In this document: one piece after another, positions 1 to 18,762 of the stretch
Position numbering within the stretch: the first letter of the stretch is position 1
Layout: each line of letters begins with the position of its first letter
NCBI GenBank assembly: GCA_035532215.1
Contig: DATKRK010000301.1
Location: forward strand, 1,181 to 65,180
From: Pirellulales bacterium
Lineage (GTDB): Bacteria; Planctomycetota; Planctomycetia; Pirellulales; JAICIG01
DNA length: 64,000 bases
Direction: 5' to 3'
Notes under the pieces: generated by a model
Databases searched by the model: none
Told to the model about the DNA's origin: nothing
The model's input: the letters and a program-made list of their open reading frames with translations, nothing else
Translations under genes and position numbers: made by a program

Positions 1-1
1 G

Positions 2-199
2 CAGGAGCAGCACCCCAGTTACCTGGCGTATTTCGGCGCCGCAATTCCCGATGAGGAACTGAGATATCGACCGATTTCCGGCGCCGACCGGAGGTACTTT
101 GCGCACGCCGCATCCAACAGCCGGATGCCTCCCATCGAGGCCGCCTGCGACGAAAACGGCGACCTTGCGAATCAGCAACTACGGCGGGCTAGCGCGTGA
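2..199 (+). CDS. 3' end of an upstream gene (last 65 codons; product unknown)
   Basis: Frame 2 is open from the window edge to TGA at 197-199. Translation ...QEQHPSYLAYFGAAIPDEELRYRPISGADRRYFAHAASNSRMPPIEAACDENGDLANQQLRRASA has mostly G/C third positions like neighbouring genes. It is absent from the ORF track because it has no in-window start. Confidence 0.4.
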   Translation, partial: QEQHPSYLAYFGAAIPDEELRYRPISGADRRYFAHAASNSRMPPIEAACDENGDLANQQLRRASA

Positions 200-381
200 A
201 CCCTGTCAGATAGCACTTGAATTTTCTGGAATCGCTTGGCAACGAAGCGGACGAAACCAAAAAGGCGGCGATGGCGCCAGATTTAACGAAAGCGCGGGTT
301 ACGAACGTCCGAAGCAAATCGATACGGCAAGATTGGCGTCCAGGGGATCGATCGGTTCGGTTGGCAACCTATCTTTAAACG

Positions 382-1578
382 ATGTGGTCTTTCGCTTTAC
401 GAACACTGTTGGCCGACCGCGGCAAGCTTGCGACTGCCTTGGTAGGGGTCGTGTTCTCGGTCGTATTGGTGAACGTGCAAGGCGGCCTGTTTGTCGGCCT
501 GCTGAGAAAGGCCAGTTTGCTTGTAGATTTTGGGCAAGCCGACGTCTGGGTCGGGCACAAGCGGATGCACAACGTGGATTTTCCGCGAGATATTCCGCAA
601 CGTTGGCTTTGGCGAATTCGAGGCGTACCGGGCGTGGCGTCCGCCGAGAGCTACGTGGTCGGTCATAGCACGATGACCCTGCCCAGCGGCGCGTTCGAAC
701 AGGTCGTAGTCGTCGGCAGCGATCCGGCGACTTTGCTGGGCAATGCCTGGACGTCCGGAGACAACAGTCCCGCCGCGGACGGCGATACGCTGTCGCTGCT
801 TGATCCGTCTTTTTATGCCTGGACGTCCGGAGACAACAGTCCCGCCGCGGTTCGCCGTTCCGACGGGATTCTGGTGGACGAATTCGAAAGCGAGAAGCTC
901 GAAAACCCGCGAATCGGCGACGTACGCGAAATCGGCGGACGCCGTGCGAAGATTGTCGGGCACAGTCGGGGCATTGTCGGCTTCTTGGTAACGCCTTACG
1001 TGTTCACGACGCTCGGACGCAGCTTGCAATATCTCGGCAAACCGCCAGACAAGTGTTCTTATTTTCTGGTCAAGCTGGAACCGGGAGCGAACGCCGAAGA
1101 AGTATGCGCCGCGATCAACCGCTGCGCCCCCGAATTGGATGCCTTGCCCCGCAACGCCTACGCCCGTAAAAGCGTCAATTACTGGCTCACTCGCACGGGG
1201 CTGGGCATCAGTTTCGGGGCAGCGACGTGCTTGGGGCTGTTGGTCGGCCTGATCATCGTGGCGCAAACGCTCTACGCTTCGGTCCTCGACCGCTTGAGCG
1301 AATTCGGCGCGCTCAAGGCGATCGGCGCTCGCGAGCGGCAGATTTACGTCGTGCTATTTTTTCAAGCCAGCACAATGGCCCTGGCAGGCGCGGCCATCGG
1401 ACTAGCGTTCGTGTGGGCGATCGAGCGAGGGTTTGCGACGCCGCATGCGCCCATCGTCGTGCCCTGGTGGATGTCGTTCGGCAGTTGCGCCCTGGTGTTG
1501 GCGATCTGCCTGGGCTCGTCGCTGCTTCCGTATCTCCGCATCCGGAAAGTGGACCCCATGATTGTTTTGCAGACTTGA
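382..1578 (+). CDS. ABC exporter permease, FtsX/MacB/DevC-like
   Basis: 398-aa ORF with an N-terminal TM helix (LATALVGVVFSVVLV), a large extracytoplasmic loop and a C-terminal FtsX-type TM bundle (GISFGAATCLGLLVGLIIVAQTLYASVLDRLSEFGALKAIGA). The cognate ATPase starts 12 nt downstream. The loop contains an in-frame duplication (see findings). Confidence 0.85.
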   Translation: MWSFALRTLLADRGKLATALVGVVFSVVLVNVQGGLFVGLLRKASLLVDFGQADVWVGHKRMHNVDFPRDIPQRWLWRIRGVPGVASAESYVVGHSTMTLPSGAFEQVVVVGSDPATLLGNAWTSGDNSPAADGDTLSLLDPSFYAWTSGDNSPAAVRRSDGILVDEFESEKLENPRIGDVREIGGRRAKIVGHSRGIVGFLVTPYVFTTLGRSLQYLGKPPDKCSYFLVKLEPGANAEEVCAAINRCAPELDALPRNAYARKSVNYWLTRTGLGISFGAATCLGLLVGLIIVAQTLYASVLDRLSEFGALKAIGARERQIYVVLFFQASTMALAGAAIGLAFVWAIERGFATPHAPIVVPWWMSFGSCALVLAICLGSSLLPYLRIRKVDPMIVLQT

Positions 1579-1590
1579 GATCGGAATCGA

Positions 1591-2325
1591 ATGCCTCACG
1601 ACACGATCGTCGCGCGCGACCTGTACAAAGGCTACCAACGCGGCGGAACGCTGACCCCCGTGCTCTGCGGCGTCAATCTGACGGTCCGCGGCGGCGAATT
1701 CACTTATCTGGTCGGTCCCTCGGGCAGCGGTAAGACCACTTTGCTCTCCATCCTGGGCTGCATTTTGACTCCCGATTTCGGAGATTTGCGGATTCTTGGA
1801 GAGGATCTGCTGCAACTCAGCGAGGCGCAGCGAGCGGACTTGCGCCGAGAACGAATCGGCTTCGTATTTCAACGCTTTCACTTGATTCGGGGCTTGAACG
1901 CCGCGGAAAACGTCGCAGTTCCGTTGACGCTCGGCGGCGTGGCGCCCCGAGCGGCTCGGCAGCGATCGTTGGAACTGCTTGAAGCCGTGGGCTTGGCGGA
2001 CCGAGCCAAATCACATCCCGCCCGACTGAGCACCGGACAGTGCCAGCGGATCGCCTTGGCCCGAGCGCTTGCAGCGGGCCCCGATCTGATTCTGGCCGAC
2101 GAGCCGACCGCCTCGCTGGACGCAGAAAACGGACAGGAAGCCATGCGTCTGCTGCGCCGGCTGACGGCGGAACAGGGCAAGACGGCGGTGGTAGTCACGC
2201 ACGATCATCGAATCTTCGAATTCGCCGATCGCATCCTACACTTGGATGCGGGCCGGATTCGCGGCGTTTCGACGGATGATGCTCCGGAATTTCGCCAACG
2301 GTCGTTATCGGCCGCAGGAGGATAA
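1591..2325 (+). CDS. ABC transporter ATP-binding protein (MacB/LolD/DevA-like)
   Basis: Walker A GPSGSGKTT, signature LSTGQCQRIALARA, Walker B LILADEPTASLD, H-loop VVVTHD. Confidence 0.95.
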   Translation: MPHDTIVARDLYKGYQRGGTLTPVLCGVNLTVRGGEFTYLVGPSGSGKTTLLSILGCILTPDFGDLRILGEDLLQLSEAQRADLRRERIGFVFQRFHLIRGLNAAENVAVPLTLGGVAPRAARQRSLELLEAVGLADRAKSHPARLSTGQCQRIALARALAAGPDLILADEPTASLDAENGQEAMRLLRRLTAEQGKTAVVVTHDHRIFEFADRILHLDAGRIRGVSTDDAPEFRQRSLSAAGG

Positions 2326-2329
2326 TGAG

Positions 2330-3385
2330 ATGCTAAAAGTCGTGTTGGCGACGCTGGGCATCGCCGTCTTGGCCGCGCTAGGAGTGGTCATCGACGCGGA
2401 CTCTCGTCAAAGCTCCCGGGTCGAGCCCGAGGAATCGTCGTCGAACTGGATTTACGCACCCGGCCGCGTCGAAGGCGCCACCGAGGAAATCGAGTTGCGC
2501 CCTCAACTTCGCGACCGGATCGTCGAAATACTCGTGCGAGAGGGGGACGTCGTCGACGCCGGAACGGTCTTGCTGCGACTCGATGGGACGACCCAGCATC
2601 ACGAGTGTGCCATGGCCGAGGCCGAGTTGGAGATTGCCTCGGCGGAACTCGAAAAACTCGAAAACGGGGCCCGCTACGAGGAGCTTCGCGAGGCGCAGGC
2701 GGAACTTCGGGCGATGGAGGCGCGGCTTACCGGAGCTCAAGACCGATTGAAGCGCACGGGCAACCTGCGGCAGCGCGGAGCGACCAGCCAACTCGACGTG
2801 GTGGCCGATTCAACGGAAGTCCAAACGCTCTCCGCGCAGGTCGAGGCGGCTCAAGCGCGGCTTGACTTGCTGCAGGCCCCGCCGCGCGATGATGATTTGC
2901 GCCGCGCGCGCGGGCGAGTCGCCGGCGTTCGAGCCCGCTTGAACCTGGCGCGTCGCGACCTGGAAAAGACGTCGCTCCAAGCGCCGTGCGCCGGGCAGGT
3001 GCTGAAAGTCCATCCTAAGGTCGGCGAACTGGCAGGGCCGGATACCGCGGAGCCAGCCGTGATCATGGCCGACACTTCGGCGACGTGCGTGCGTGCGTTC
3101 GTCGAGGAACTCGACGCCCCGCGGATGACCGCCGGCTTGCCCGTGACCGTCGACGCCGATGGCCTGCCGGGTCGGTATTTTCGGGGCCGCGTAACGCGAC
3201 TCGCTCCGCGGATGAGCCGCAAACGGCTTTGGACCGACGACCCCGCCGAGCAATTCGACAGCAAGGTCCGCGAGCTCTGGATCGAATTGGAAGATGCGAA
3301 AGCTCTGATCGTGGGCCTTCGGGTCGATGTGCGAATTCAATTAAACCCGCCGCCAGAAAAGGCAAGCCAAGGATTACCGCGATGA
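2330..3385 (+). CDS. HlyD/DevB-type periplasmic adaptor (membrane fusion protein)
   Basis: The ATG at 2330 follows GGAGGA and lies 4 nt after the ATPase stop. The product has an N-terminal TM (MLKVVLATLGIAVLAALGVV), a coiled-coil segment (AELEIASAELEKLENGARYEELREAQAELRAMEARL...) and a beta-barrel C-terminus. The track ORF start at 2246 overlaps the ATPase and is rejected. Confidence 0.85.
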   Translation: MLKVVLATLGIAVLAALGVVIDADSRQSSRVEPEESSSNWIYAPGRVEGATEEIELRPQLRDRIVEILVREGDVVDAGTVLLRLDGTTQHHECAMAEAELEIASAELEKLENGARYEELREAQAELRAMEARLTGAQDRLKRTGNLRQRGATSQLDVVADSTEVQTLSAQVEAAQARLDLLQAPPRDDDLRRARGRVAGVRARLNLARRDLEKTSLQAPCAGQVLKVHPKVGELAGPDTAEPAVIMADTSATCVRAFVEELDAPRMTAGLPVTVDADGLPGRYFRGRVTRLAPRMSRKRLWTDDPAEQFDSKVRELWIELEDAKALIVGLRVDVRIQLNPPPEKASQGLPR

Positions 3386-4545
3386 CGCCGCAGAGTGTTG
3401 CCGAGCAGGCCCTTGGTTTTGCCGAACGCCCCGCGGGCGAATCGGGCGCCATTCGGCCGGCCAGCGACTTGCTGGTCGTGGAATTGGTGCGAGCCGCAAC
3501 GCTGGCGCCTTCGCCCGACAATAATCAGCCTTGGCGCTTCGAATTCCGCGAGGGGCGATTGTTGGTTTTCGCGGATGCCAGCCGGGGATTGCCGTCGGAC
3601 ACGGACGGCATGTTCTGCCTGTTGGCGTTAGGGGCCGCTGTCGAGAATATTTGCCTTGCGGCCCGCGCGATGGGGTATGCGCCGACCGTCAAATGCCTTG
3701 TGGAGAAACCGCCGCTCGGCGCCGCCGCAGCCTGCCCGCCGGTCGCCGAGGTCACATTTCAGCCGTCCGATGCCGAACGCGACCCGCTGGTCGACCAACT
3801 AACGCTTCGCTGCACCTGCCGGCGGCCGTTTGACGTGCGCGCGATCGGGCCGGAAAAACTAGCCCGACTGTCTGCCGCAGCCGCCGAGGCGGGCGACGTG
3901 CGCGTCGATTGGCTGTTGAGACGCGAAGAGCTCGATTCCGTGGCGCAGTTGGTGGCTGCCGGCGATCGCATTCGTTTCGAATATCAACCGTTCCACGCCG
4001 AGTTGTATCGGCAATTGCGTTTCCGTCGTGCCGAGGCCGAACAGACGCGCGACGGCTTGGACCTGCGCACGCTCGAACTACCTCCAGGCGGCGGCCTGAT
4101 GTTGCATCTGCTGCGTTCATGGACGTTTTTGTCGGCGCTCAATCGGCTGGGGTTTAGCCGTTTGCTAACGTTGTCGGCGGCAAAACTCGTGCGTTGCTCC
4201 GGCGCCATTGGCGCACTCAGTGTACCTGAGTGCGAGGGCGCTGCCGCCATGGCCCATTACCTGGCCGCGGGACGGGCGTTCCAGCGGCTTTGGCTGACGA
4301 CGCACAGCGAAGGCCTGGCGCTGCATCCCCTAGGCAGTCTCCCGATCTTCATGCGCCCCAGCGCGCAGCGAGCGGCTTTGCCGCGACATCGACGGTTGGC
4401 CGAAAAGATCACGCGGGAGTTTGCGGCGCTTGTGCCGGAGACCAGCCAACGAGTCACGACGATTCTCTTTCGAATTGGGCATGCCAAGCCGCCTGACGTC
4501 CGGTCCTTGCGTCGAAGTCCCGAGGACGTACTAGAACAGTTCTGA
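3382..4545 (+). CDS. nitroreductase-fold protein, double-domain (Acg / Rv1355c C-terminal-like)
   Basis: The ATG at 3382 overlaps the adaptor stop (ATGA). It carries the motif LAPSPDNNQPWRFEF typical of the nitroreductase superfamily. A 387-aa length fits a tandem nitroreductase-like fold. The track ORF start at 3085 lies inside the adaptor gene. Confidence 0.6.
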   Translation: MTPQSVAEQALGFAERPAGESGAIRPASDLLVVELVRAATLAPSPDNNQPWRFEFREGRLLVFADASRGLPSDTDGMFCLLALGAAVENICLAARAMGYAPTVKCLVEKPPLGAAAACPPVAEVTFQPSDAERDPLVDQLTLRCTCRRPFDVRAIGPEKLARLSAAAAEAGDVRVDWLLRREELDSVAQLVAAGDRIRFEYQPFHAELYRQLRFRRAEAEQTRDGLDLRTLELPPGGGLMLHLLRSWTFLSALNRLGFSRLLTLSAAKLVRCSGAIGALSVPECEGAAAMAHYLAAGRAFQRLWLTTHSEGLALHPLGSLPIFMRPSAQRAALPRHRRLAEKITREFAALVPETSQRVTTILFRIGHAKPPDVRSLRRSPEDVLEQF

Positions 4546-4584
4546 TCCGGAGCCGGGTTTTACGGCGACAGAGGAGTTTTTTGC

Positions 4585-5517
4585 ATGGCAACTGTTTTCG
4601 AGCCTTCCAGCGGCATTCAGGCGGAGAGGGCTGACGACGCCGCCTGGCGCTACGAAGAAGCGTTCAGCCGCAACCTGGGATTGATCTCGCCTGAAGAGCA
4701 GTCGAGGCTGCGACGATCCCACGTCGCGATCCCTGGCATGGGCGGAGTAGGCGGCATGCACCTGTTGACGCTGGCTCGTATGGGCATCGGGCGATTTACG
4801 ATTGCCGATCCCGACGCGTTCGAGATGGCGAACTTCAACCGCCAGGCAGGCGCCCACGTCCACACCTTGGGTCGCGGAAAGGCCGAGGTGATGGCCGAAC
4901 AGGCCCTGGCGGTCAATCCGGAACTCGAGCTGCGAGTTTTTCGGGAAGCGGTCACCGAGGAGAATATCGACCAGTTCCTCCACGGCGTCGACTTAGTCGT
5001 CGATGGGATCGACTTCTTCGCTATCGACGCCCGCCGCCTGTTGTTTCGCGAGGCGCGGCGTCGCGGCATCTGGTGCGTCACGGCCGGCCCGATCGGATTC
5101 AGCGCGGCTTGGCTGGCGTTCGATCCGGAGGGCATGAGTTTCGACGAGTATTTCGATCTTTGCGACGACCAGCCTCGTATCGAGCAACTGATCGCCTTTG
5201 CCGTCGGCCTAACTCCCAAGGCGACGCACCTGCGGTATCTCGACTTGTCGCGGGTCAATCCCGATTCGGGCGCCGGTCCTTCGGCGTCGCTGGCCTGTCA
5301 GCTTTGCAGCGGTGTGGTCGCCGCCGAATCGCTGAAGATCTTGCTGGGACAACAAGACGTTCGTCCGGCACCCTATTATTTCCAGTTTGATGCATGCCGC
5401 CGAAAGCTAGTCCGCGGCGTATTGCGCAGAGGAAACCGGGGTCCCATGCAGAGGGCCAAGCGAGCGTATCTTCGCCGCCGACTTAGCGCCCCTCGCCGCG
5501 GCGAGCGAGAGGCGTAA
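4585..5517 (+). CDS. ThiF/MoeB/HesA-family E1-like adenylyltransferase
   Basis: Nucleotide-binding loop HVAIPGMGGVGG, followed by FTIADPDAFEMANFNRQ and DLVVDGIDFF, the E1-like Rossmann pattern. Confidence 0.85.
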   Translation: MATVFEPSSGIQAERADDAAWRYEEAFSRNLGLISPEEQSRLRRSHVAIPGMGGVGGMHLLTLARMGIGRFTIADPDAFEMANFNRQAGAHVHTLGRGKAEVMAEQALAVNPELELRVFREAVTEENIDQFLHGVDLVVDGIDFFAIDARRLLFREARRRGIWCVTAGPIGFSAAWLAFDPEGMSFDEYFDLCDDQPRIEQLIAFAVGLTPKATHLRYLDLSRVNPDSGAGPSASLACQLCSGVVAAESLKILLGQQDVRPAPYYFQFDACRRKLVRGVLRRGNRGPMQRAKRAYLRRRLSAPRRGEREA

Positions 5518-5558
5518 GTCCCCCGATTTCATCACGCTCCGCTCCGCGCATACAAAGA

Positions 5559-5590
5559 CCCAGTTCCGAGCACGAGGGCTCGGAACTGGG
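5559..5590. terminator. stem-loop between convergent genes (13-bp perfect stem, 6-nt loop)
   Basis: cccagttccgagc (5559-5571) pairs with gctcggaactggg (5578-5590). It lies between the ThiF stop (5517) and the PEP-CTERM gene stop (5619). On the minus strand it is followed by tctttgta. Confidence 0.5.
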
Positions 5591-5618
5591 CCAAATTCGG
5601 AAACAACGCGGGGGCGTC

Positions 5619-6569
5619 TTAGCCTGCTCGGCGCCGCCGGAACAAGCAGAGCGAAGTCCCCATCAGCCCCCAAAGGGCCAGCGAGGCGGGCTCCGGAACC
5701 GCATGCACTTGAACCGGATCTTGCGTTACCAGCGGCCACTGACTGGTGATGCCAAAGTCTCCGTTGGCCGTCGTGCTGCCTTTAATTATCACTTGGTTCA
5801 GGATGCCGTTGAGTTGTGCATTCGAGAAGCCAAAATTGTCGGCAGCCGCACTCGGCGGCACGTGCTGGTCCGGAATGAAAGTCAGCCCTGTGTTGTTGAA
5901 GATCATGCCCAGCGACCCGGTGAACGTCGTGGTGGCGTTGGCGTTGGCGGCCACCGTATTCGGACCTAGGGCCTGCCAATAGTAGCCGCTGCCCCACGTT
6001 CCCGTAGCCCCGACGCCGGCGTAAAATGTGCCAGTCTCGGCGTTGGCGATGCCCTGCGCAATCGTACCCCCGTCGCTGAAATTCACTGTGTTTCCGACGA
6101 ACAGTCCGATCATCGTGTTTTGCAAATTCGACGAAGTGCCGCCAGCCGCCTGCACATTCGACAAAACGGCGAGTGTGTTGGCAAACGAAGTCGTGGGAGT
6201 GATTTGGAAGCTCGTGGCGCCGTCTGAGCCTGCAACAGCGTTCACCGTGACGTCATACACACCCGTCAATTGAAAACCAACGGGTGAAAGGCTGTTGTTA
6301 CCGCTAGTCGTTTGGGACGTGGTCACGTTCAAAATACCGATGAAGCGATCACCAACGCCGATCGTGGCGTTACTCGAAAGCTCGTTACCGCTCGAGTCAA
6401 CGACCTCTTCAAAGCTGGTAATCTTGAACTGTGTGATTTGGTTTCCGCCGGTTTGGTAAAGATCGCCGACGCTCGAGACAGGGCCGGCCAACGACAGCGA
6501 AGGCAGCGCAAAAACCGCGGCGCTGTAAATCAGTGTTCGCAGCGCAGCTCTTGTATTCAAAAACCTCAT
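5619..6569 (-). CDS. PEP-CTERM sorting-domain protein (exosortase cargo)
   Basis: The C-terminus VPEPASLALWGLMGTSLCLFRRRRAG is PEP motif + TM + basic tail. The start was moved to the ATG at 6569, giving signal peptide MRFLNTRAALRTLIYSAAVFALPSLSLAGP. The body is T/S/N/G-rich. Confidence 0.85.
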   Translation of the reverse strand: MRFLNTRAALRTLIYSAAVFALPSLSLAGPVSSVGDLYQTGGNQITQFKITSFEEVVDSSGNELSSNATIGVGDRFIGILNVTTSQTTSGNNSLSPVGFQLTGVYDVTVNAVAGSDGATSFQITPTTSFANTLAVLSNVQAAGGTSSNLQNTMIGLFVGNTVNFSDGGTIAQGIANAETGTFYAGVGATGTWGSGYYWQALGPNTVAANANATTTFTGSLGMIFNNTGLTFIPDQHVPPSAAADNFGFSNAQLNGILNQVIIKGSTTANGDFGITSQWPLVTQDPVQVHAVPEPASLALWGLMGTSLCLFRRRRAG

Positions 6570-6722
6570 GATCAAAATCCCTCGTAAGAAAAACCCGTCC
6601 AGCCACCTGGGTCGCCGAGCGCCGCGCAGCGCTCTTGCAGAGCGACTCACCAAGTGGTCCGGCCCGATTCTGCGCCTGCATGTCGGGAAGGCGCAAATTG
6701 AAATCGGCCGTCAAACCACGGA

Positions 6723-7250
6723 CTAAAGAGGGATTGCGCGAGGAGGCCGGAAGAAGCGGTCTTCCAGAGGAGAGGGAAGCGAGATACGGCTGCAGAGAGT
6801 GAGCCGCGAAACTAAATTGCTCTGCGCCGTGGTCGGCGCTTCGCTGGCAAGAGCTGCCAAGCCGGCGCTGGGGCCGACACTTGGCGGTTGAGATCCAGCG
6901 CCCCCAGCGTTGTTCGTCACGCTCGGCGGCAAGGAGGGTTGCTGGCGGTCGCGGATAAGAGGCATCGCCGGCTGCGGATCGACGGGCCGCTGCGGGGCAG
7001 CCATTTCGCCGCTCAGCACCGCATCACAGTTGACGATCACGCCCGCAGTGGCATCGCCAAGCGATACCAGCCAAACGACCAACGCGGCCCCGGCGACGCA
7101 CATGGCGCGAAAGCCAGAGGCTCGGCAGGATCGGTGCTCGCGGTGGCAGGTCATTGCGGCTTTGACTCCGGCCTCGCACTTGGAGGCCCTGGAACCCAAT
7201 AGTCCAACAGTGCCGATCATAACCAGCGAAGCGGCCGCGTCAAGCATCAT
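6723..7250 (-). CDS. hypothetical protein (possible membrane-anchored, Pro/Ser-rich)
   Basis: 175-aa ORF with acceptable G/C third-position bias and a hydrophobic segment MCVAGAALVVWLVSLG. No recognisable domain. Overlapping + strand ORFs look worse. Confidence 0.35.
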   Translation of the reverse strand: MMLDAAASLVMIGTVGLLGSRASKCEAGVKAAMTCHREHRSCRASGFRAMCVAGAALVVWLVSLGDATAGVIVNCDAVLSGEMAAPQRPVDPQPAMPLIRDRQQPSLPPSVTNNAGGAGSQPPSVGPSAGLAALASEAPTTAQSNLVSRLTLCSRISLPSPLEDRFFRPPRAIPL

Positions 7251-7380
7251 TTCGAAAAAATGGAAAAAACCGCAGGGACGCCCAGTCGCGGCTTTTGACC
7301 GGGCCAGGCAGTGATGCCTGAGATCGAATGTCCATTATTTCCGGCGCCCGCGTGCGTCGCCCCGCAGCCTCCCGCACTAA

Positions 7381-7510
7381 CCCGGATTATTCATCAGCCC
7401 ACGCCAACCCGAAGCGCAAGCGAGGCGGAGCAACGCACTTACCTCGCTGGCGCTTCGGGTTTGTATGGAGCGCTTTGTCAAGTAATAGCTGGGCTGATGA
7501 ATAATCCGGG
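7381..7510. repeat. 130-bp nested-palindrome element
   Basis: Outer perfect 20-bp inverted repeat: cccggattattcatcagccc (7381-7400) with gggctgatgaataatccggg (7491-7510). Inner 20-bp inverted repeat: aacccgaagcgcaagcgagg (7406-7425) with cctcgctggcgcttcgggtt (7442-7461), 1 mismatch. Confidence 0.75.
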
Positions 7511-7581
7511 CTAACGCTGCGGCTCTTGAAGAACGCCTACGCCAAAGGATCGGGCGCGTGCCATAGGGCCTATTTTCAGAT

Positions 7582-7875
7582 GTGACTGCGAAGTCCAACT
7601 CGGCCTTCGATCTGCCCTTTCCAAGAGGGGATGTTGATTGGTTTCTCACGCGACAGCTCGCTGGAGTTTACCTGCCGCCGACGAAATACGCACAACGGCG
7701 TATCGACAGCGCCGGATTCGGTCGTATCATGGCCCGCAGTTCAATTGAGTTCCGGAAGAAATACGGGGCCGTGGCGCGCGGCGAAAGAAAAAACGGGAGC
7801 TTGACGGCACTGGGGCGCCAATTAGTATGGGACTCGTTGCATCGGCAAGCCCAACCGAGAGGGGTAAGCAGGTAA
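7582..7875 (+). CDS. hypothetical small protein (weak)
   Basis: 97-aa GTG-initiated ORF in an otherwise gene-free 665-bp stretch. Codon bias is moderate and no motif was recognised. Confidence 0.2.
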   Translation: MTAKSNSAFDLPFPRGDVDWFLTRQLAGVYLPPTKYAQRRIDSAGFGRIMARSSIEFRKKYGAVARGERKNGSLTALGRQLVWDSLHRQAQPRGVSR

Positions 7876-8067
7876 ATTCGAGCGATATAGAAACGAGCAT
7901 CCGGCCGTAGAGGGTGCATGCCGCAGAGGTGCGGCCGCCCAGGCTGGCAGGCAGACGAACAAGCATTCGCTGCTTGAGGTTAGATGCGTGCCGAGACGGC
8001 ACGATATGGGCGGCGCTCATTTGCGAGGCGTCGCTTGTGGCACTAAGCGCCGGGTGAACATTTCTCT

Positions 8068-8096
8068 GTCACCCATGGGGACGGAGTCCGCCCGAG
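8068..8096 (+). repeat. 29-nt motif copy 1 (gtcacccatggggacggagtccgcccgag), 80 nt upstream of the exosortase start
   Basis: Identical 29-mer also at 18910-18938. It contains CCATGG and the small palindrome GGAC-gga-GTCC. Confidence 0.8.
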
Positions 8097-8175
8097 TGAG
8101 GCAGCGTTTGGCAGACAGCGTGTTCTGGTTCCGTCCCTGTCGTGTTTTGCTCTCTTCCCGAGTGACGATTCGTCC

Positions 8176-9219
8176 ATGAAACGTGGAAATAGGCGCAAAA
8201 CGGCGTCGGTTCGGGATGTTGTCGCCCGAAGTTCGCGGTCTGCAGCGTGGGAAATCGCTCGACCTCAGGGCGATGTGGCAAGCGAATTGGTCGATGCCGC
8301 GGCGAACGCGGAGGCCTGGCGCGCAAAGATCGGAAACCCGGTCTTTTTAGCGGGTATCGCTATCGTCGCCGCCACGTTTGGTTGGTCCTACTGGCCAATC
8401 GCCTGCGAACTGGTTCGCATCTGGAATCACGAGCCCGACTACTCGCACGGGTATTTTGTCGTTCCGGCGGCGCTGTATTTTCTTTGGTTTCGCCGCGGCA
8501 GTCTGCCGGCGCCCAGCGATCGGCTGCAATGGGGCGGAATGGTTTTGCTGGTGTTGAGTGGGGCGATACGCTTTGCCGGCAGTCTTTGGTATATCGACGC
8601 ACTCCAAGCTTGGTCGATTCCGTTTTGGGTGGCCGGTACCTGCTGGCTCTTTGGCGGTTGGCGACTGCTATGGTGGAGCCTGCCCTCGGTTGGTTTTCTG
8701 GCGTTCATGATTCCGCTGCCCTTTCGGGCGGAACATTTGCTCAGTTTTCCGTTGCAACGCGTGGCCACGAAGCTCAGTTGCTGGCTGTTGCAGTCGCTCG
8801 GGCGTCCCGCTGTGGCCGAGGGCAATGTGATTTATTTGAACGACATCACCCTGGGCGTCGCCGAGGCGTGTAGCGGGCTGCGCATCTTCATGTCGATTGC
8901 CGCGTTGGCTTACATTTACATGGTGCTAGCCAAACGCGATTGGTGGATGAAGGCGATCCTGTGCGCCAGCGTGTTGCCTGTCGCCTTGTTGACCAATGCC
9001 GTGCGGATCGTCGCCACAGCGCTTCTGCACGAATGGGTTTCCGGCGAGGCTGCCCATAAGTTTTCTCACGATTTAGCGGGCTGGCTGATGGCGCCGCTGG
9101 CCGCCGGACTGTTGGGGCTAGTGAGTTGGTACCTCGGCCGGCTGTTGGTCGATGTGGAAATCGTTTCTCCAGGCGAACTGATGTTCGGAGTACATGGCGA
9201 CGGCAAAAGCAAACGATAA
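8176..9219 (+). CDS. xrtA: exosortase (XrtA/EpsH-like)
   Basis: N-terminal motif WNHEPDYSHGYFVVP, catalytic-Cys motif GVAEACSGLR and Arg motif LTNAVRIV in a polytopic membrane protein. The neighbourhood (EpsI, PEP-CTERM-locus-type glycosyltransferase, deacetylase, AsnB-type and FemAB-like genes) matches the XrtA-type system as I recall it. Confidence 0.9.
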   Translation: MKRGNRRKTASVRDVVARSSRSAAWEIARPQGDVASELVDAAANAEAWRAKIGNPVFLAGIAIVAATFGWSYWPIACELVRIWNHEPDYSHGYFVVPAALYFLWFRRGSLPAPSDRLQWGGMVLLVLSGAIRFAGSLWYIDALQAWSIPFWVAGTCWLFGGWRLLWWSLPSVGFLAFMIPLPFRAEHLLSFPLQRVATKLSCWLLQSLGRPAVAEGNVIYLNDITLGVAEACSGLRIFMSIAALAYIYMVLAKRDWWMKAILCASVLPVALLTNAVRIVATALLHEWVSGEAAHKFSHDLAGWLMAPLAAGLLGLVSWYLGRLLVDVEIVSPGELMFGVHGDGKSKR

Positions 9220-9349
9220 GCCTACCGTTCTGCTTTTTCCGTCCCATGGCGGGGCCCCTTCAAGATTGATCGCGACAGGAAACTGACGCGTTTCCGCCGC
9301 CTTTAAACACCGCAGCCGCGCAGTTACCGATATTACCGAGCCGAATTCC

Positions 9350-11650
9350 ATGCACGAACCCGGAAAACAGCCGTCGGCGGGCGTTTTGGCGCCTATCGCA
9401 GCACGAGGGCATTTGGCTTCGTGGTCCACGGCGCCCGCCGTACATTCGGTCGCGGCGTTCAGCCTCGGAGACGTTTGGCGCACGGCACGACGCTGGTGGT
9501 GGCAGTGTACTTTTGCAGGTCTAGTGCTGGCAACCGCGGCCTGTGCTGCCGTGTGGTTCCTTTTCGAACCGGTTTATGTGGCGTCGTCCTGGTTGCTCAT
9601 CAAGAGCCAGCAGCCGCATATCGTGTACGCGACAAGCGGCGATTCTCGCTTGTTCGCAGAAACGCAATTGCAAACGATCCGCAGCCCGGTTGTGCTATCC
9701 AGAGTGCTTGCCAGCCAGCCCGAGATCGCCAAGTCGCCGGAAGGCGAACGATTTAACTCGCACCTGACATGGCTTCAGCAAGGGCTCCGCGCCAACTACG
9801 TGGGCCAGTCGGAACTTTGCGAAATCAGCTTTCGGGCGAGTAATTCTTCGATGGCCGCCAAAGTCGCGAACGCCATCATCGAGTCCTATTTGACGCTGCA
9901 TCGGGATAAAACCGGAGAGCAGGCGAGTCGCATCGTCGAGCTGTTAAACGAGGAGAAACGCAGCCGGGAACAAGAGGTGGAATATCTGCGCAACCAAGTG
10001 CGCGATCTGGCGCGCAAGATTACCGGCCACGAGCCGGCGTTCGTCGGCGGCGATCGGGACTTAGTATTGCACGAGTCCCCCTTGAGTCAGTTCGAGCAGC
10101 AGCGCAATCAAGCCGAAGTGGAAAAAGCTTATCTAGAGGCGAAGCTAACCGCTTACCGCGAATCGGTTGAAGCCGACGATGACGAAATACCGGCCGCTGA
10201 TTTGGAGAAGGCCCTCGCTGCACACCCGGGCATTCAGCGATTGCAGTCGCAGATCGCTATGTTGAAGGCGCAGCACGCAGAATATAAGCGTGTCGCACGT
10301 GGGAAGAGCGCCGATCGTTTGCCGCAACTTGTCGAGCGTATCGAGGAAGCCGAAGGATATCTGACGCGCCATTCCGATGAATTGCGCCCCGATGTCGAGA
10401 AGGAATTGCGGAAGGCCCTCAAGGAAGGTGCGGTCCGGGCCATCGCCGGGCTGAAGATGAACATCCGGAACCAACAGGAACTGATGAATCTGTGGCAGTC
10501 GAAAGTCGACGAGCACCGCAAGGAGTTGGAAAAAACGGGCGACGAAACGTTGCAGTTGGAATTCGCGCGAGCCGACTTGCTGCGTTCGGAGGAAGTGTTG
10601 GATCGCATTTCCGATCGGATCATGGCTTTGCGAACCGAACGAAAGGCGCCGGAGCGAGCGGAAATACTTCAACTTGCCGCTCCTCCCGCCGCCCCGTTAG
10701 AGGCGTTGCCGTATAAGAAGCTTGGAATGGCCGCCTTGGGAGCGTTTTGCATTCCTTTCGGCTTGGCATTCCTCTGGGAACGATGGGTCCGGCGGATTTC
10801 CGACGCGGGGCAAGTATCTATGGAAGCGAATCTGCCAGTGCTGGCCGAAATCTCGGCTTTACCGACGCGAAGCAGCATGGCGAGTCGGCTTACCGCCAAC
10901 CGTTTTGCACGCGACAGAGCCACGTTCGAAGAAAGCATCGACGCTTTGCGCGTGAACTTGATGCTGGCGCCAGAATCCAAGGATCTGCGAACGCTCGTCG
11001 TGACGAGCGCGGTGAGTCGAGAAGGAAAAACAAGTTTGGCGGCTTCCTTGGCGGCCAGCTTGGCGAGGTCTTTGCGACAGCCAACCTTGTTGATCGATGC
11101 CGATATGCGGGCGCCCGACTTGCACGAGATGTTCGACGCCGCGTTGGAGCCCGGCTTGGCAGGCGTACTGGATGGCGCATGCAGCCTTGACGACGCCTTG
11201 ATTACTGACGTCAATCGAAACGTGCATTTCTTGCCGGCGGGACGTCTGACGGTCAGCCCGCATCTGCTGTTACACAGCAGTCGATGGACGTCTTTGCTAT
11301 CCCAGGCGAGCTCGCGCTATCGCTATGTGATCATCGACGCGCCCCCGGTGCTCGCCGCCAGCGAGTCGCTCATCCTGGCGAGCGCGGCGGAAGGCACTTT
11401 GGTGTGCGCCATGCGGGATATCAGCCGCGGTCCTCAGTTGCGTACGGCCTGCGAGCGATTGAGAAATGCGGGAGCGCGAATTCTAGGCACCATCATCAGC
11501 GGCGTTCCAACACAAACATGGGCCTATAAATACGGCGGCTACGGTTATGGCCGGGAGCTTTACGCCGAAGGTTCCGGCGCCGTTTCGGATGAGGCGTCCT
11601 ATTCAAAGGAAGGGCATCCTGAGCCCGGGGAAGCGCGCCAAGGTTTCTAA
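9350..11650 (+). CDS. fused polysaccharide chain-length determinant / BY-type tyrosine autokinase (GumC/Wzc-like)
   Basis: N-terminal TM plus a long coiled coil and a second TM (LGMAALGAFCIPFGLAFLW). C-terminal P-loop VVTSAVSREGKTS, Walker A' LLIDADMRAP, Walker B YVIIDAPPVLA, Tyr cluster WAYKYGGYGYGRELY. Confidence 0.9.
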   Translation: MHEPGKQPSAGVLAPIAARGHLASWSTAPAVHSVAAFSLGDVWRTARRWWWQCTFAGLVLATAACAAVWFLFEPVYVASSWLLIKSQQPHIVYATSGDSRLFAETQLQTIRSPVVLSRVLASQPEIAKSPEGERFNSHLTWLQQGLRANYVGQSELCEISFRASNSSMAAKVANAIIESYLTLHRDKTGEQASRIVELLNEEKRSREQEVEYLRNQVRDLARKITGHEPAFVGGDRDLVLHESPLSQFEQQRNQAEVEKAYLEAKLTAYRESVEADDDEIPAADLEKALAAHPGIQRLQSQIAMLKAQHAEYKRVARGKSADRLPQLVERIEEAEGYLTRHSDELRPDVEKELRKALKEGAVRAIAGLKMNIRNQQELMNLWQSKVDEHRKELEKTGDETLQLEFARADLLRSEEVLDRISDRIMALRTERKAPERAEILQLAAPPAAPLEALPYKKLGMAALGAFCIPFGLAFLWERWVRRISDAGQVSMEANLPVLAEISALPTRSSMASRLTANRFARDRATFEESIDALRVNLMLAPESKDLRTLVVTSAVSREGKTSLAASLAASLARSLRQPTLLIDADMRAPDLHEMFDAALEPGLAGVLDGACSLDDALITDVNRNVHFLPAGRLTVSPHLLLHSSRWTSLLSQASSRYRYVIIDAPPVLAASESLILASAAEGTLVCAMRDISRGPQLRTACERLRNAGARILGTIISGVPTQTWAYKYGGYGYGRELYAEGSGAVSDEASYSKEGHPEPGEARQGF

Positions 11651-11659
11651 CGAGGCGCA

Positions 11660-14600
11660 TTGATTCAGAGTTCGATGCAAACTGCGACCATCAACCGCGG
11701 CGTGGGCCAACCGGCTAAACAGGCTAGACTGCGCCGGCGGGTCTTGAACATTCGGCTATTGGTGCGAAGCGCCGCCGCGACGGCGGTTATGGCGATATTG
11801 GCTTATTTTTGGCATGGGTTCCAAATAGACCGCAATGCAACCGCGTTACTGGACCGTGCGGCCCAAATGGAACAGAGCGAGAATTGGCTCGGGGCAGCGC
11901 AAAGCATCCACCGCTTCTTGCGCTTGCGTCCTGACGATGTCGATGCCAAGATTCGCCTGGCTGAAGATTTCGATCAGGCTGCCGCGACGACGCGTGACAA
12001 AACACGGGCCGTGGAATTATATGCTACCGCGATCGGCCTGGCGCCGGAACGAGCGGATCTGCGGAATCGCCATCTGACGTTGCTCTTGGAATCGGGCGAT
12101 TACTCGGCGGCCCTGCGGTACGCCGACGAAATGCTGGAACGTGAGCCGGAAGGGGCTCCTGCATTGCGGGTCCGCGCGCTTGCCCAGCTTGATCAATTGC
12201 AGATTCGCGGCGACGTGGCCGCGAATGAGGTCGCCAAGTCGCTTGAGGCGGCTATCGAGCTAAATCCAAACGATATCCAACTCGGCGCCAACCTGGCCCG
12301 CCTTTACAGAGCGAGTCTTCAATCGGGCGACCAAGGGGATCAGGTCATGGATCGTCTTGTCGAGCGGGCGGGCGACCAGGCCGCAGCGTTGCTCGCAAGA
12401 TACGCCTACCGCAGGCAATTTGGGTTGCCCGGCGCCGACGACGACCTCGACCTGGCTCTGGCAAAAGATGTGGATGCAAAGGACCTGGACATTCGTTTGG
12501 CGGCTGCGATCCGAGCCCAAGAGGCAGAGGACTGGGGGCAGTCCCTGAAATACTATCAAGACGCGGTCAGAATCGACAAAAGAGACCGGCGAGGTTACTT
12601 GGGCTTGGGCTTGGCATATCGTGAGCAAGGCAAGATCAAAGAGGCGCTCGTCGCTTGGCGGTCAGGGCTGTCGAATATAGGCGGACCCGATTTAGTGATG
12701 CTGACTCAAATCGCCGCGGCCGAGATTGAACTGCGGCAATGGGAGGCGGCCCAAAAAAACCTGAAGAGCATCGAACGGTTGGTTGAAGGCATCTTCGGTC
12801 GGGAGCAATCGGCTTGGCTGGCAACGATCGATTCTCTGCAAGCGGAGATGCTCATCGCCCAAGACGAGTGCCGAGAGGCGATACCGCTTCTGAAGAAGGC
12901 GATTATGCTCCGACAAGCGGGCGCCGAAACGAAAGCGAGCATTGCCGCAGACGCGAAGTTCTATGCCGCGTTGGGCCAATGCCATGCCAGGCTGATGCAG
13001 TGGGATCAGGCCGCGACGAGCTATCAGAAGGCCGCGGACTTGCGACCTTCGGAAACAGTTTATCGAATTTCGGCTGCGGCAGCATGGGCTTCGGCCGGAC
13101 GCTTAGATGAAGCTTCGCGACAATATGAACAAGCTTTGTCCGGCGATCGCGGGACAGCGAGTGCGTGGGGCGCCTACGCCCAGGTCGCGTTTCGACAGCA
13201 ACTTACTGCGTTGGAGCCCAACTGGCCGGAATTCGAACGAATTCTGGCCCAGGCGCAAGCCAAGACCGCCGACTCCAACGCCGGGCCGGAGGAAATCTTG
13301 GCTCTGAAGTTGCTCGATGCCGAATTTCTGCTGCACCGACAAAAATTCGAAGAAGCGTTTGCGCTGCTTAAGACGGTAGAAACTGAATTCGCAGCTGCAC
13401 CGGAGTTAGCCGCGCGATTGATCTTCGATTACGAGCGTCTGGGCCGGCAAAACGACGCCGACCGCGCGCTTGGCGAATTTGAAAAGAGGCCCGAAAACAG
13501 CTTGCGGTCCGTTTACGTTTGGGCGGATCTTTTGACAAGCAGGAAGCAATTTGACAAGGCGGAACGCCGTCTGTCAGATGCGTTGGCCGCGAAACTAACC
13601 AATGAAGAGCGGTTTGGCCTCGTTTACCGGCTCGCCATCCTCGATCTTTCCCAGGGCAAGAGCGACGCGGCGCGGAAAAAGCTTGAAGAACTCGCCGGCG
13701 CCGCACCTAAAGATCGACGCGTGCCAGCCTTGCTTGCGGAAATGGCGCTTGCGCGAGGCGATTTGCCGAATGCGGAGAAGTGGGAGCAGCGACTTCGTGA
13801 TATTCTAGGGGAAGAGGATGCGCTGTGGCGATATTATCGCGCCCAGCGTCTGATATATCAGTTCGCGAAAACAGCTCCAGACGATCAAAAAGCAAGACAG
13901 CGGCTGATTGATGAAGCCACTAAGCTGCAGGCAGAGGCGGAGCGGCTTCGCCCTAACTGGGGAGCAGCCTATTTGCTCAAGGCGAAATTGGCGCTGTTGG
14001 GCAGGCAGCCTGATTCCGAAGCGGCGGTTCGCGCCTATATCCAATCGATCCGGCTTGGCGAAACGCGTTTGCAAGTGTATGAGTCTCTGATCTCCCTGCT
14101 TTATCAGCAAAATCGCATCGCGGAAGCGGCAACTTATTTGAATCGACTGCGTGACGCGACGGAACTGCCGGCAGAGTTGACCACGATGGCGATGGCCATT
14201 GATGTTCGACAAGGCAATCTAGCTCGCGCTCTCGAATCGGCGCGGCGTGAGGTGGAACAGCATCCAGACGACGCTACGCGTCGCTTATGGTTGGGGCAGT
14301 TGTTAGCGCTTGAGTCGCCGGCCGATGACGACGCGGAAAAAGGCAAGCAAAAAGAAGAAGCCGAAGCTCAGATTAAACGAGCCAAGGAGTTATCGCCTAA
14401 GGACTTGCGTACGTGGTCTGCGTTGTTGTCATTTTATGCTGGCACGAAGCAGGTCGACGCCGGCCGCAAATTGCTCGCTGAACTCGAACAAAGCGACACG
14501 GTCGCTGATAGCGAACAAGCCTTCGTTTTAGCCCAAGGTTATGCTCTTTTGGGCGACCGCGACCGAGCTAAGTCGCTGTATCTTGACGCCGTTAAGAGGA

Positions 14601-16048: not shown

Positions 16049-16073
16049 CTCCAAACTGGCGCCGCTATTTCAG

Positions 16074-16769
16074 ATGACAGAAACTGTTGCTAATCGCCGA
16101 ATGCGCATGAGTGTCGCAATGGCAGGCTTATTATCGGTTGTTGGATTAACCGTTGCGTCCGGCGGGGTCTCCGGTTGGTTGGATAATCGCTGGGGCCAGC
16201 CTGTCGACCTATTGGCGGCAGGAAAGAATCTGGAACGGGCGCCAAGCCAGGTCGGCGACTGGCTTCTGGAGAACTCAAAGCCATTGAGTGCCGAGGTTAC
16301 GGACGTTCTGCAATGTAGCGGAAGCACGCAGCGCGTTTACCGCAACCAGAAGACCGGCGATGTGGTTACTTTGGCGCTGATCGTCGGCCCTCCCGGCCCG
16401 ACCTCCGTGCATACCCCAGAAGTTTGTTATTCTAGTCGCGACTACAAGACCATTTCGGCGCCCCAGCGGTTTCGAGCCATTGACGCGGGCTCCCGTTTCT
16501 GGGGGATGACCCTGGAAGCGACCGATCTCGAAGGCGGAAGGTTGAGCGTGGCTTACGCCTGGAATGACGGACACGGGTGGGTCGCCCCCGATCAACCTCG
16601 GTTTCAATTCGGCGGCGCCAAGTTGCTCTACAAACTGCAATTAGCCGCCCCCATGGATCGCGGTAATCCAGCCGAAAAGAGTAACCCCTGCCAAACTTTT
16701 CTGCGTGAATTCTTACCAGCGCTGGACTCTGTTCTTTTCCAGCAGCAGTCGTCAGCAGAGAAAACATGA
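16074..16769 (+). CDS. epsI: EpsI-family exosortase-associated protein
   Basis: N-terminal TM, then the SVHTPEVCYSSRDY motif (the H-x-P-E-x-C-Y pattern of EpsI-family proteins). Its position in the locus also fits. Confidence 0.8.
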   Translation: MTETVANRRMRMSVAMAGLLSVVGLTVASGGVSGWLDNRWGQPVDLLAAGKNLERAPSQVGDWLLENSKPLSAEVTDVLQCSGSTQRVYRNQKTGDVVTLALIVGPPGPTSVHTPEVCYSSRDYKTISAPQRFRAIDAGSRFWGMTLEATDLEGGRLSVAYAWNDGHGWVAPDQPRFQFGGAKLLYKLQLAAPMDRGNPAEKSNPCQTFLREFLPALDSVLFQQQSSAEKT

Positions 16770-17779: not shown

Positions 17780-17841
17780 GGGTTGGAGATGCTTGACTCT
17801 TCGCCGTCTGAACGCCCCGCGTTGACAACGCATACGATAAT

Positions 17842-18762
17842 ATGGAAATCTTGAACGCATTAACCGTCGACGTCGAGGACTATTACCACGTCTCGGCCTT
17901 CGAGCGACACATCACCCGCGAACGTTGGCACGATTTCGACAGTCGCGTCGAGGCCAGCACGCGGCGATTGCTCGACATTCTGGCGGAAGCCGACACTCGC
18001 GCCACGTTTTTCGTCCTGGGCTGGGTCGCACGGCGCCATCCGGAACTGGTGCGGGAAATCCATGACGCAGGGCACGAGCTAGGCTCGCATAGCTTTTGGC
18101 ATAGGCTGGTGTTCGAACTTTCTCCCGAAGAATTCCGGAATGACCTGCGCGACTCTCGAGCGGTCCTGGAAGACGCCGCGGGACAGCCAATCACGGCTTA
18201 TCGGGCGCCTAGCTTTTCCATCACCCGTCGCTCGCAATGGGCGCTTGAGATTCTGGCCGAAGAGGGGTTCAATGTTGATTCCAGCATCTTTCCGATTCGG
18301 CACGATCGCTACGGCATCCCTGATGCGAATCCGCATTTGCACGAGATTTCGACGCCGGCCGGGCCTTTGCAGGAGTTTCCGCCTTCGGTCGTTCGTTTTG
18401 CACGCATGAACTTTCCTGTCTCCGGCGGCGGATACTTTCGGCTGTACCCGCTTTCTTGGACCGTCCGCGGCCTATCTCGCGTCAACGGCAAGGGGCGGCC
18501 GTTCATGTTTTATATTCACCCTTGGGAATTGGACCCCGATCAACCCCGGCTGGCCGCCGGCTCTCGGCTATCTCGGGCGCGGCATCGAGTGAACCTGGCG
18601 TCGACTGCGGAAAAGTTGAGGCGCCTGTTGGGACGATTTCGCTTTGGCCGCATGGACGAATCGATCGAAGCAACGCTCCGCGCAAACAACGGCGGCTCGG
18701 GCGGCGGCGAACGATGTTTACGAAAGGCAACGAAGCGTTGCGAAAGCGCCACGATCGAATGA
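17842..18762 (+). CDS. polysaccharide deacetylase (XrtA-system type, NodB fold)
   Basis: LTVDVEDYYHVSAFE..., ATFFVLGWVA, GHELGSHSFWH, RAPSFSI. Confidence 0.9.
   Translation: MEILNALTVDVEDYYHVSAFERHITRERWHDFDSRVEASTRRLLDILAEADTRATFFVLGWVARRHPELVREIHDAGHELGSHSFWHRLVFELSPEEFRNDLRDSRAVLEDAAGQPITAYRAPSFSITRRSQWALEILAEEGFNVDSSIFPIRHDRYGIPDANPHLHEISTPAGPLQEFPPSVVRFARMNFPVSGGGYFRLYPLSWTVRGLSRVNGKGRPFMFYIHPWELDPDQPRLAAGSRLSRARHRVNLASTAEKLRRLLGRFRFGRMDESIEATLRANNGGSGGGERCLRKATKRCESATIE

Follow-up and report, generated by a model that had tools for sequence, protein, structure and literature searches.

A stretch of 64,000 nucleotides of contig DATKRK010000301.1 from the metagenome-assembled genome of a Pirellulales bacterium, hereafter called the window, was found to contain near its start an operon in which an Acg-type flavin oxidase and a ThiF-like protein are encoded behind a DevCAB/MacAB-like ABC pump. 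Judged from sequence comparison, the enzyme pair appears to be a split oxazolone synthetase, and the operon appears to make and export a lipid derived from an N-acyl amino acid; a probability of about 0.8 is given to this reading. The homology, the gene fusions, the gene neighbourhood and the residues of the ATP site come from the present analysis, and the chemistry of the first three steps of the proposed pathway was taken from the literature on OxzAB, TyzACB and TrzAS. An earlier note on the same DNA had called the function of the operon unassignable and had put it forward as an undescribed system. Neither description holds, since the pair corresponds to a characterised type of ThiF-like cyclase and Acg-type flavin oxidase (OxzB, TyzB/TyzC, TrzS) of a known pathway, and the same split pair is found in the stieleriacine clusters.

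Organisation of the operon

The open reading frames (ORFs) were taken from a six-frame list, the junctions were read directly on the window sequence and the domains were assigned with Pfam and NCBIfam. The genes of the operon were found to be as follows.

1..199, + strand: 3′ end of a FeeM-like N-acyl amino acid synthase gene (putative OxzA/TyzA/NasY role)
382..1578, + strand: ABC permease of DevC/MacB type, with periplasmic and C-terminal FtsX domains (Pfam/NCBIfam)
1591..2325, + strand: DevA/MacB-NBD/LolD-type ABC ATPase (Pfam/NCBIfam)
2330..3385, + strand: HlyD/DevB-type periplasmic adaptor (from an internal ATG of a longer ORF)
3382..4545, + strand: Acg-type monomeric flavin-dependent oxidase of double nitroreductase fold, 387 amino acids (from an internal ATG of a longer ORF)
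4585..5517, + strand: ThiF-like, putatively ATP-dependent cyclase, 310 amino acids (NF006077, NF011424, NF011425)

The permease and the ATPase genes were found to be separated by a 12-nt gap (TGA 1576-1578, ATG 1591), followed by a 4-nt gap between the ATPase and the adaptor genes (TAA 2323-2325, ATG 2330) with AGGAGGA just upstream, an ATGA stop/start overlap between the adaptor and the oxidase genes at 3382-3385, and a 39-nt gap containing GAGGAG between the oxidase and the ThiF genes (TGA 4543-4545, ATG 4585). The five co-directional genes and four junctions reported in the earlier note were thereby confirmed on the sequence, and its domain calls (permease, ATPase, adaptor, double nitroreductase fold, ThiF/E1-like) were confirmed by Pfam and NCBIfam. 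The five ORFs can be taken as real genes and not as chance frames, as homologs number in the thousands, with identities of 60-70% for the ThiF-like protein and 45-52% for the oxidase. The operon is longer than the five genes that the note had counted, as a sixth gene, the FeeM-like synthase, lies directly upstream. It starts before position 382 and has the order synthase-DevC-DevA-DevB-oxidase-ThiF when the window is read together with the Logan contig L001, so that the five genes of the window make up all but the first gene of a six-gene operon.

The putative ThiF-like cyclase

The ThiF-like protein was found to match NF006077 with 423 bits (cut-off 266) and PF00899 with 160 bits, spanning positions 2-223 of the 238 Pfam positions. 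It also matched positions 22-299 of NF011424 (380 bits) and positions 312-595 of NF011425 (313 bits). The residues G51, G53, G54, G56, R86, Q87, K99, D140 and D143 of the adenylation site were found to be invariant in 20 homologs. In the alignment with E. coli ThiF, the four glycines corresponded to G35/G37/G38/G40 (GLGGLG), followed by the correspondence of R86-Q87 to R70-Q71, of K99 to K83 and of D140/D143 to D124/D127. An intact adenylation site of the oxazolone synthetase type (Gly-rich loop, Arg/Gln, Lys and DxxD) is present in the window protein. The zinc-binding CxxC pairs of E. coli ThiF (C169/C172 and C240/C243) were found to have no counterparts in this alignment, and the window protein contained a family-specific insertion of about 25 residues after the nucleotide-binding core.

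The AlphaFold model of the protein had a predicted local distance difference test score (pLDDT) of 83.8 and its best PDB match was E. coli ThiF (1ZUD, E 2.3e-17). The closest solved relative by sequence was TcdA (E 6.5e-18), a tRNA t6A cyclodehydratase which, like the proposed cyclase, uses ATP to cyclodehydrate an N-acylated amino acid moiety. TcdA and E. coli ThiF act on tRNA or protein, whereas the proposed substrate of the window cyclase is a small lipid.

A ThiF-like protein might also be a classical activating enzyme of ThiS/MoaD or of a ubiquitin-like protein, serving cofactor biosynthesis or anti-phage conjugation. The ThiF Pfam domain is in keeping with such a role, as are weak matches to ThiF (TIGR02356, 91.5 bits), MoeB (77 bits) and the 6A-MBL cap2_3 defence model (45 bits), but these scores are far under the respective cut-offs of 275, 449 and 320, and a role of this kind is so improbable as to be nearly negligible. 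Between positions 1 and 9000, no ThiS-, MoaD- or ubiquitin-like ORF ending in Gly-Gly was found except the ABC ATPase and an unsupported 54-codon frame at 6727-6891. The sulfur-carrier or ubiquitin-like function was rejected, the four zinc cysteines of ThiF/MoeB being absent and no rhodanese, E2 or JAB partner being present.

The Acg-type flavin oxidase

The link to the Rv1355c-type fusions of ThiF and nitroreductase domains that the earlier note had drawn was borne out, the oxidase matching positions 371-719 of NF005901 (Rv1355c family) with 202.6 bits. Further matches were found to positions 325-674 of NF011424 (180 bits), to the Acg family model NF047509 (171 bits) and to the C-terminal half of NF011425. 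The AlphaFold model (pLDDT 90.6) had Acg of Mycobacterium smegmatis as its best PDB match (2YMV, E 3.5e-15). The RxTxR motif (R143/T145/R147) was found to be invariant in 25 homologs and would correspond to the site for the flavin phosphate that nitroreductase-fold proteins typically have. An Acg-like oxidase adjoining or fused to ThiF is characteristic of the oxazolone synthetases, and in the window the two genes are 39 nt apart. By homology, the oxidase would take the role of TyzC and of the C-terminal parts of OxzB and TrzS, that is, of a desaturase of the C-alpha/C-beta bond.

An E1-like protein next to a nitroreductase-fold protein is also known from azole pathways of peptides that are ribosomally synthesised and post-translationally modified (RiPPs), where the pair (E1-like protein, as docking or cyclodehydratase partner, and SagB-type dehydrogenase) acts as an azoline/azole maturase on a ribosomal peptide that would then be exported by the ABC pump. 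MacB-type exporters do serve some RiPPs, and the ATPase scored 175.5 bits on the darobactin DarD model (cut-off 375). Against this, the conserved partner of the pair is an acyltransferase, which is sometimes fused to it, and a RiPP product is very improbable. The Pfam, NCBIfam and ORF searches agreed with the earlier note in finding neither YcaO nor a convincing precursor ORF. A small conserved ORF near the pair, whose search the note had suggested, was not found either, and the orthologous gaps are too short for one, with only 38-44 nt between the synthase and DevC genes in three related loci (L031, L032 and L034). The azoline RiPP maturase of the SagBCD type (thiazole/oxazole-modified microcins, TOMM) was rejected, with no YcaO and no SagB-type match in Pfam/NCBIfam and with an oxidase of the Acg/Rv1355c type.

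Fusion proteins and characterised relatives

The model NF011424 (679 amino acids) was found to contain ThiF followed by the oxidase, and NF011425 (989 amino acids) to contain a FeeM-like synthase at 43-224 followed by ThiF at 312-595 and the oxidase at 825-985. All three separate proteins of the locus match the corresponding segments of these models. The synthase, the ThiF-like protein and the oxidase are linked, Rosetta-stone fashion, because they are fused in that order in single polypeptides elsewhere. A synthase of N-acyl amino acids is encoded beside the pair in the present operon as well, with its tail out of frame. In the June 2026 NCBIfam release, NF006077, NF011424 and NF011425 continued to bear the name 'hypothetical protein' despite the published oxazolone biochemistry; the names of the best-fitting models therefore do not convey the known function in genome annotation.

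The published systems contain the same three roles. In Pseudoalteromonas rubra, OxzA and OxzB make N-acyl tyrazolones, OxzB being a ThiF-nitroreductase fusion that acts on N-acyl tyrosine (bioRxiv 10.1101/2020.06.11.147165). In M. tuberculosis, N-acyl tyrazolones are made by TyzA, TyzB and TyzC (Rv2336, Rv2338c and Rv2337c), where TyzA acylates tyrosine, the ThiF-like TyzB carries out an ATP-dependent cyclisation and the Acg-like TyzC an O2-dependent desaturation (PMC10404671). TrzA/TrzS of the same species are Rv1356c/Rv1355c, and TrzS makes tryptazolones; its D217A substitution in the ThiF adenylation motif abolishes cyclisation and its R540A substitution in the oxidase leads to loss of the oxidase activity (PMC12856293). 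The invariant DxxD motif D140/D143 of the window protein is the counterpart of the D217 motif of TrzS. The order of cyclisation and desaturation is obligate in TrzS, whereas either order is possible in TyzBC (PMC12856293). The closest solved structures found here (Acg 2YMV and E. coli ThiF) are the same as those reported for TrzS and TyzB/C.

TyzABC resembles the window operon in having the three roles as separate proteins, with a FeeM/AHL-synthase-like acyltransferase, a stand-alone cyclase and an adjoining Acg-like oxidase. It belongs to another phylum, the window order is oxidase then ThiF, and the lipid transporter gene mmpL9 lies beside tyzACB (PMC10404671), whereas a DevCAB/MacB-type pump lies inside the window operon. 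OxzB and TrzS have the same domains and predicted chemistry as ThiF-oxidase fusions, whereas two separate genes are present here; an exporter was not reported for the OxzAB and TrzAS operons, whereas the window operon has one.

The clusters of stieleriacines (N-acyl dehydrotyrosines) in Stieleria, which is of the same phylum, were reported to contain the split ThiF and nitroreductase pair with synthase genes (PMC7293339, PMC12479983), and S. nitratireducens JC645 was reported to carry a cluster of stieleriacine type (PMC12254169). At the JC645 locus (L006; Stieleria, also Roseiconus, nitratireducens), ThiF and the oxidase were found together with three FeeM-like genes, a PEP-CTERM gene and a gene for a UbiE-like methyltransferase. 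The ThiF-like protein encoded there is 63% identical to that of the window. The window oxidase shares 41% identity with the JC645 homolog and 33% with the C-terminal domain of a ThiF-oxidase fusion protein. The split pair, the FeeM-like synthases, the PEP-CTERM gene, a neighbouring exosortase/polysaccharide locus and the presence of in-cluster transporters are shared between the Stieleria clusters and the window. The Stieleria clusters (S. maiorica, S. neptunia and S. nitratireducens) contain one to four synthase genes and a methyltransferase, whereas the window locus contains one apparently frame-shifted synthase and no methyltransferase; the S. maiorica cluster contains two RND (CzcA-like) pump/adaptor pairs between its synthase genes, whereas the window contains an ABC pump of DevCAB type.

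The upstream N-acyl amino acid synthase

The synthase gene was hidden from the reader of the earlier note because it is cut by the window edge. It was recovered on L001, which was found by an exact-match look-up of the ThiF protein and is identical to the window sequence from L001 position 1070 on, extending 1069 bases further upstream; these 1069 bases are the upstream DNA covered. Look-ups of the 398-aa DevC returned no record, and those of the oxidase returned the same two short contigs only. Directly 5′ of DevC, a 208-aa ORF with the FeeM domain PF21926 was found (L001 505-1131, ending at window position 62), which matches positions 43-197 of the triple-fusion model NF011425.

The gene as a whole (L001 505-1268, window 1-199) was found to contain a frame change near its 3′ end. 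Frame +1 (L001 505-1020) covers homolog residues 1-173; frame +3, which stops at TGA 197-199 of the window, covers homolog residues from about 150 to 216 (L001 1026-1217, window 1-148), and about 24 residues are thus encoded twice. The 158-position FeeM Pfam core is whole and in one frame. Either a true recombination out of frame between tandem paralogs or the collapse of tandem copies during assembly could account for the frame change; two or three tandem synthase copies were found in close relatives, and no second synthase gene was found within the window.

The damage raises the reading that the synthase is a pseudogene and the operon a decaying, non-functional remnant, and the frame change and duplicated segment are indeed present in the window and in L001 alike, together with a 72-nt insertion variant in DevC. 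Against decay, the FeeM core is intact, none of the five downstream genes is truncated or interrupted by a stop, their catalytic motifs are invariant, and both assemblies may stem from the same samples, which leaves room for the collapse of tandem paralogs in assembly. A remnant is therefore considered improbable.

The DevC variant consists of an exact 36-nt direct repeat at 743-778 and 815-850, with a spacing of 72 nt, which was missed by Tandem Repeats Finder and detected by a separate repeat search. DevC of L001 is one repeat unit shorter (374 aa) than that of the window (398 aa), a difference in the periplasmic domain that stems from strain or from assembly.

The DevCAB-like pump

The permease was found to match FtsX (PF02687, 66.7 bits) and MacB_PCD (PF12704, 27.2 bits), with DevC as its best family, and the ATPase to match PF00005 (106.6 bits), with DevA as its best family. 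The adaptor was found to contain HlyD_3 and HlyD_D23 matches (PF13437/PF16576) and also matched DevB and PRK03598. A tripartite architecture of the MacB type, with an FtsX/MacB permease, an ATPase and an adaptor of the HlyD family contiguous in one operon, is present. DevBCA, the heterocyst glycolipid exporter, and MacAB-TolC have the same three-component make-up, and their known substrates are lipids or amphiphiles. The cut-offs of the DevBCA models were not reached (TIGR01185 devC, 90.8 of 290 bits; TIGR02982 DevA, 218.8 of 295.8 bits; TIGR02971 DevB, 109 of 129 bits), and the pump is DevBCA-like in architecture and not a member of the DevBCA family at NCBI thresholds. DevC orthologs at 46-64% identity were found at the same position in planctomycete loci.

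Gene neighbourhood of the ThiF family

The neighbourhood survey comprised 80 loci recovered with the ThiF-family profile from species-representative genomes of Planctomycetota (22 loci), Desulfobacterota, Alpha-, Beta- and Gammaproteobacteria, Bdellovibrionota and others. The ORFs were labelled with iterated profiles, and representative neighbours were checked against Pfam/NCBIfam. The oxidase was found adjacent to or fused with ThiF in 60 of the loci, and a synthase was present in 53, either of FeeM type or of the type of TIGR03694, the 'PEP-CTERM/exosortase system-associated acyltransferase' (216-269 bits, cut-off 112). Where at least 5 kb was available on both sides (43 loci), the oxidase was present in 37 and the synthase in 34. 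ThiF-oxidase fusions were found in 26 of the 80 loci, two of them being triple fusions of synthase, ThiF and oxidase. The triple fusions belong to two Desulfobacterales genomes (L037 8895-11459; L038 9257-11965). A reversed oxidase-ThiF fusion was seen in an Aureliella genome (L009 8822-10867), so that both domain orders exist.

A DevCAB-like set was scored in 10 of the 80 loci, namely in nine of the 22 loci of Planctomycetota and in one Pseudodesulfovibrio. In the planctomycetes it lies upstream of ThiF and, where a synthase was detected, directly downstream of it, except in L014, where DevA and DevB come after the oxidase. The order synthase-DevC-DevA-DevB-(oxidase or methyltransferase)-ThiF was found in L004, L012, L019, L031, L032 and L034, and L011 and L018 were found to keep this order without a detected synthase. 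In 27 of the 80 loci a transporter of lipid type adjoins the enzyme block, with no gap exceeding 400 bp. A built-in or adjacent lipid transporter is hence a recurrent and not an obligatory accessory of the pathway, of which DevCAB is the planctomycete version.

Other lineages were found to contain other transporters at the same place. Permease pairs of LolC/E type abut ThiF/oxidase in Betaproteobacteria and others (L063, L064, L066, L068, L069, L074, L047, L061 and L062, around 7000-18000), accompanied by a LolD-like ATPase and a LolA_like protein (PF17131) in L047, L061, L062 and L066; the set is apparently a lipoprotein-release-type machine dedicated to the ThiF/oxidase cluster. An HAE3/MMPL (HpnN-like) transporter was found directly against the fused ThiF-oxidase gene in Desulfobacterota (L021, L026, L028, L029, L030 and L036). 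Outer-membrane-type proteins with DUF1302/AMIN domains were seen to recur in nine surveyed loci.

The survey bears on a further explanation, by which the pair is an oxazolone synthetase and the pump a functionally unrelated gene set that merely shares the transcript; it could belong to general macrolide or lipid efflux, or to the neighbouring exosortase polysaccharide system. The low count of DevCAB among the ThiF loci, the 20 of 43 complete loci without any transporter, the common occurrence of MacB-type pumps as housekeeping genes and the position of the operon next to a large envelope-biogenesis locus are all in its favour. The pump genes, however, are flanked by the synthase on one side and the ThiF/oxidase genes on the other, with junctions of 4-12 nt gaps or overlaps, the same gene order is kept in several planctomycete lineages, unrelated lineages place LolCDE-like machines with LolA-like carriers or HAE3/MMPL transporters directly against the same enzymes, and the S. 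maiorica cluster has its RND pumps between the synthase genes. An unrelated pump is accordingly held to be unlikely, somewhat less so than decay of the operon.

The make-then-export idea of the earlier note stands in its general form, the export being deduced from the operon position; the counts show that the pair does not always travel with a DevCAB-like exporter, a point which the note had proposed to check. By the conditions that the note itself had set, its claim of a new system falls on two points, the known pathway to which the pair belongs and the exporter that does not always accompany it.

Proposed pathway and its weighing

In the proposed pathway, the FeeM-like synthase would join a fatty acyl group to an amino acid, which by analogy is probably aromatic; the specificity for the amino acid and for the acyl chain is a presumed one. 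The ThiF-like protein would then adenylate the free carboxylate with ATP, followed by the attack of the amide oxygen, which would close a 5(4H)-oxazolone (azlactone) ring. The Acg-type oxidase would desaturate the C-alpha/C-beta bond using O2 to give an unsaturated oxazolone of tyrazolone type, and hydrolysis of the latter would give an N-acyl-2,3-dehydro amino acid of stieleriacine type. In the last step the DevCAB/MacAB-like machine would move the amphiphile from the cytoplasmic membrane or the periplasm towards the cell surface or the medium; this step, and the pump substrate with it, is suggested by the conserved operon position.

Several points weigh against the proposed make-and-export pathway. 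The connection to OxzB, TyzB and TyzC was drawn by way of NCBIfam models, fusion proteins and the Stieleria homologs. In both assemblies the synthase gene appears damaged, with its C-terminal tail out of frame, so the first step may be impaired or supplied by a paralog elsewhere, or the damage may have arisen in assembly. The DevCAB set falls below the curated DevBCA cut-offs and its substrate is deduced from position; no gene of an outer-membrane channel or factor was found in the operon or between positions 1 and 9000. In M. tuberculosis and Rhodococcus the oxazolones are found mainly in cells and not in the supernatant (PMC10404671, PMC12856293), and export is therefore not a general property of the pathway.

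As the enzyme chemistry is already known, the locus adds nothing to enzymology, and its modest new element is the operon-embedded ABC pump. On the role and the cellular destination of bacterial oxazolone/N-acyl dehydro-amino-acid lipids, the question whether and how tyrazolones are exported was posed explicitly in the work on M. tuberculosis (PMC10404671), and the role of the ThiF protein in stieleriacine clusters was called 'enigmatic' (PMC12479983). In the DevCAB-type pump the locus offers a candidate for the export of these lipids, in a clean, operon-embedded form, while in about a third of the related loci some lipid transporter is physically joined to the enzymes. It is proposed tentatively, at somewhat less than even odds, that these lipids are destined for the envelope or secreted and that their clusters repeatedly recruit dedicated lipid-extraction machines, which in Planctomycetota would be pumps of DevCAB type, in Betaproteobacteria LolCDE-like permease pairs accompanied by a LolA-like carrier and in Desulfobacterota HAE3/MMPL transporters. 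If so, the window pump would be the first candidate for a dedicated exporter of the oxazolone lipid class, and the proximity to PEP-CTERM/exosortase genes would reflect a surface function of the lipid, such as one in an exosortase-dependent matrix. More speculatively, the reactive azlactone might serve as an acyl donor.

Neighbouring features

The features downstream of the operon were found to be as follows.

5557..5592, no strand: G+C-rich hairpin (15-bp stem) in the gap that separates the convergent ThiF and PEP-CTERM genes
5619..6653, - strand: PEP-CTERM-anchored secreted protein, convergent with the operon (PF07589 and TIGR02595 at residues 318-342)
8176..9219, + strand: exosortase, first gene of an XrtA-type polysaccharide locus (PF09721, 208 bits; TIGR02602, 151 bits, cut-off 105.6)

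The hairpin sits between the stop of ThiF (5515-5517) and that of the PEP-CTERM gene; it is likely a bidirectional terminator and marks the end of the operon. A sigma-70 promoter scan, which is uninformative for a planctomycete, found no promoter in the operon or in the upstream bases within the window. The count of terminator-like sites in the scan was no different from the shuffled expectation, and neither a riboswitch nor a leader turned up when 1-9000 was scanned with Rfam.

A homolog of the PEP-CTERM gene was found to adjoin the ThiF/oxidase genes in several planctomycete loci. A linkage of N-acyl amino acid synthases to PEP-CTERM/exosortase loci has already been published, according to the citation of Craig et al. 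2011 in PMC7293339. Between the PEP-CTERM gene and the exosortase, a 175-aa ORF on the - strand (6723-7250) was found without an NCBIfam match, followed by a nested long palindrome at 7378-7513 (arms 7378-7425 and 7442-7513) between this ORF and the exosortase gene. The palindrome is present in a single copy in the window and without an Rfam match, and its RNA fold has an energy of -81.4 kcal/mol (z = -8.4 against shuffles).

The exosortase opens a complete-looking XrtA-like polysaccharide locus extending from 8176 to at least 25019, with the present operon at its head. This locus was found to contain an AAA_31 kinase-like protein, a 1462-aa TPR protein, a DUF3485/EpsI-like protein and a priming sugar transferase (Bac_transf), together with a DUF3473 deacetylase, glycosyltransferases, an ABC-2 permease and a Wzy_C protein.

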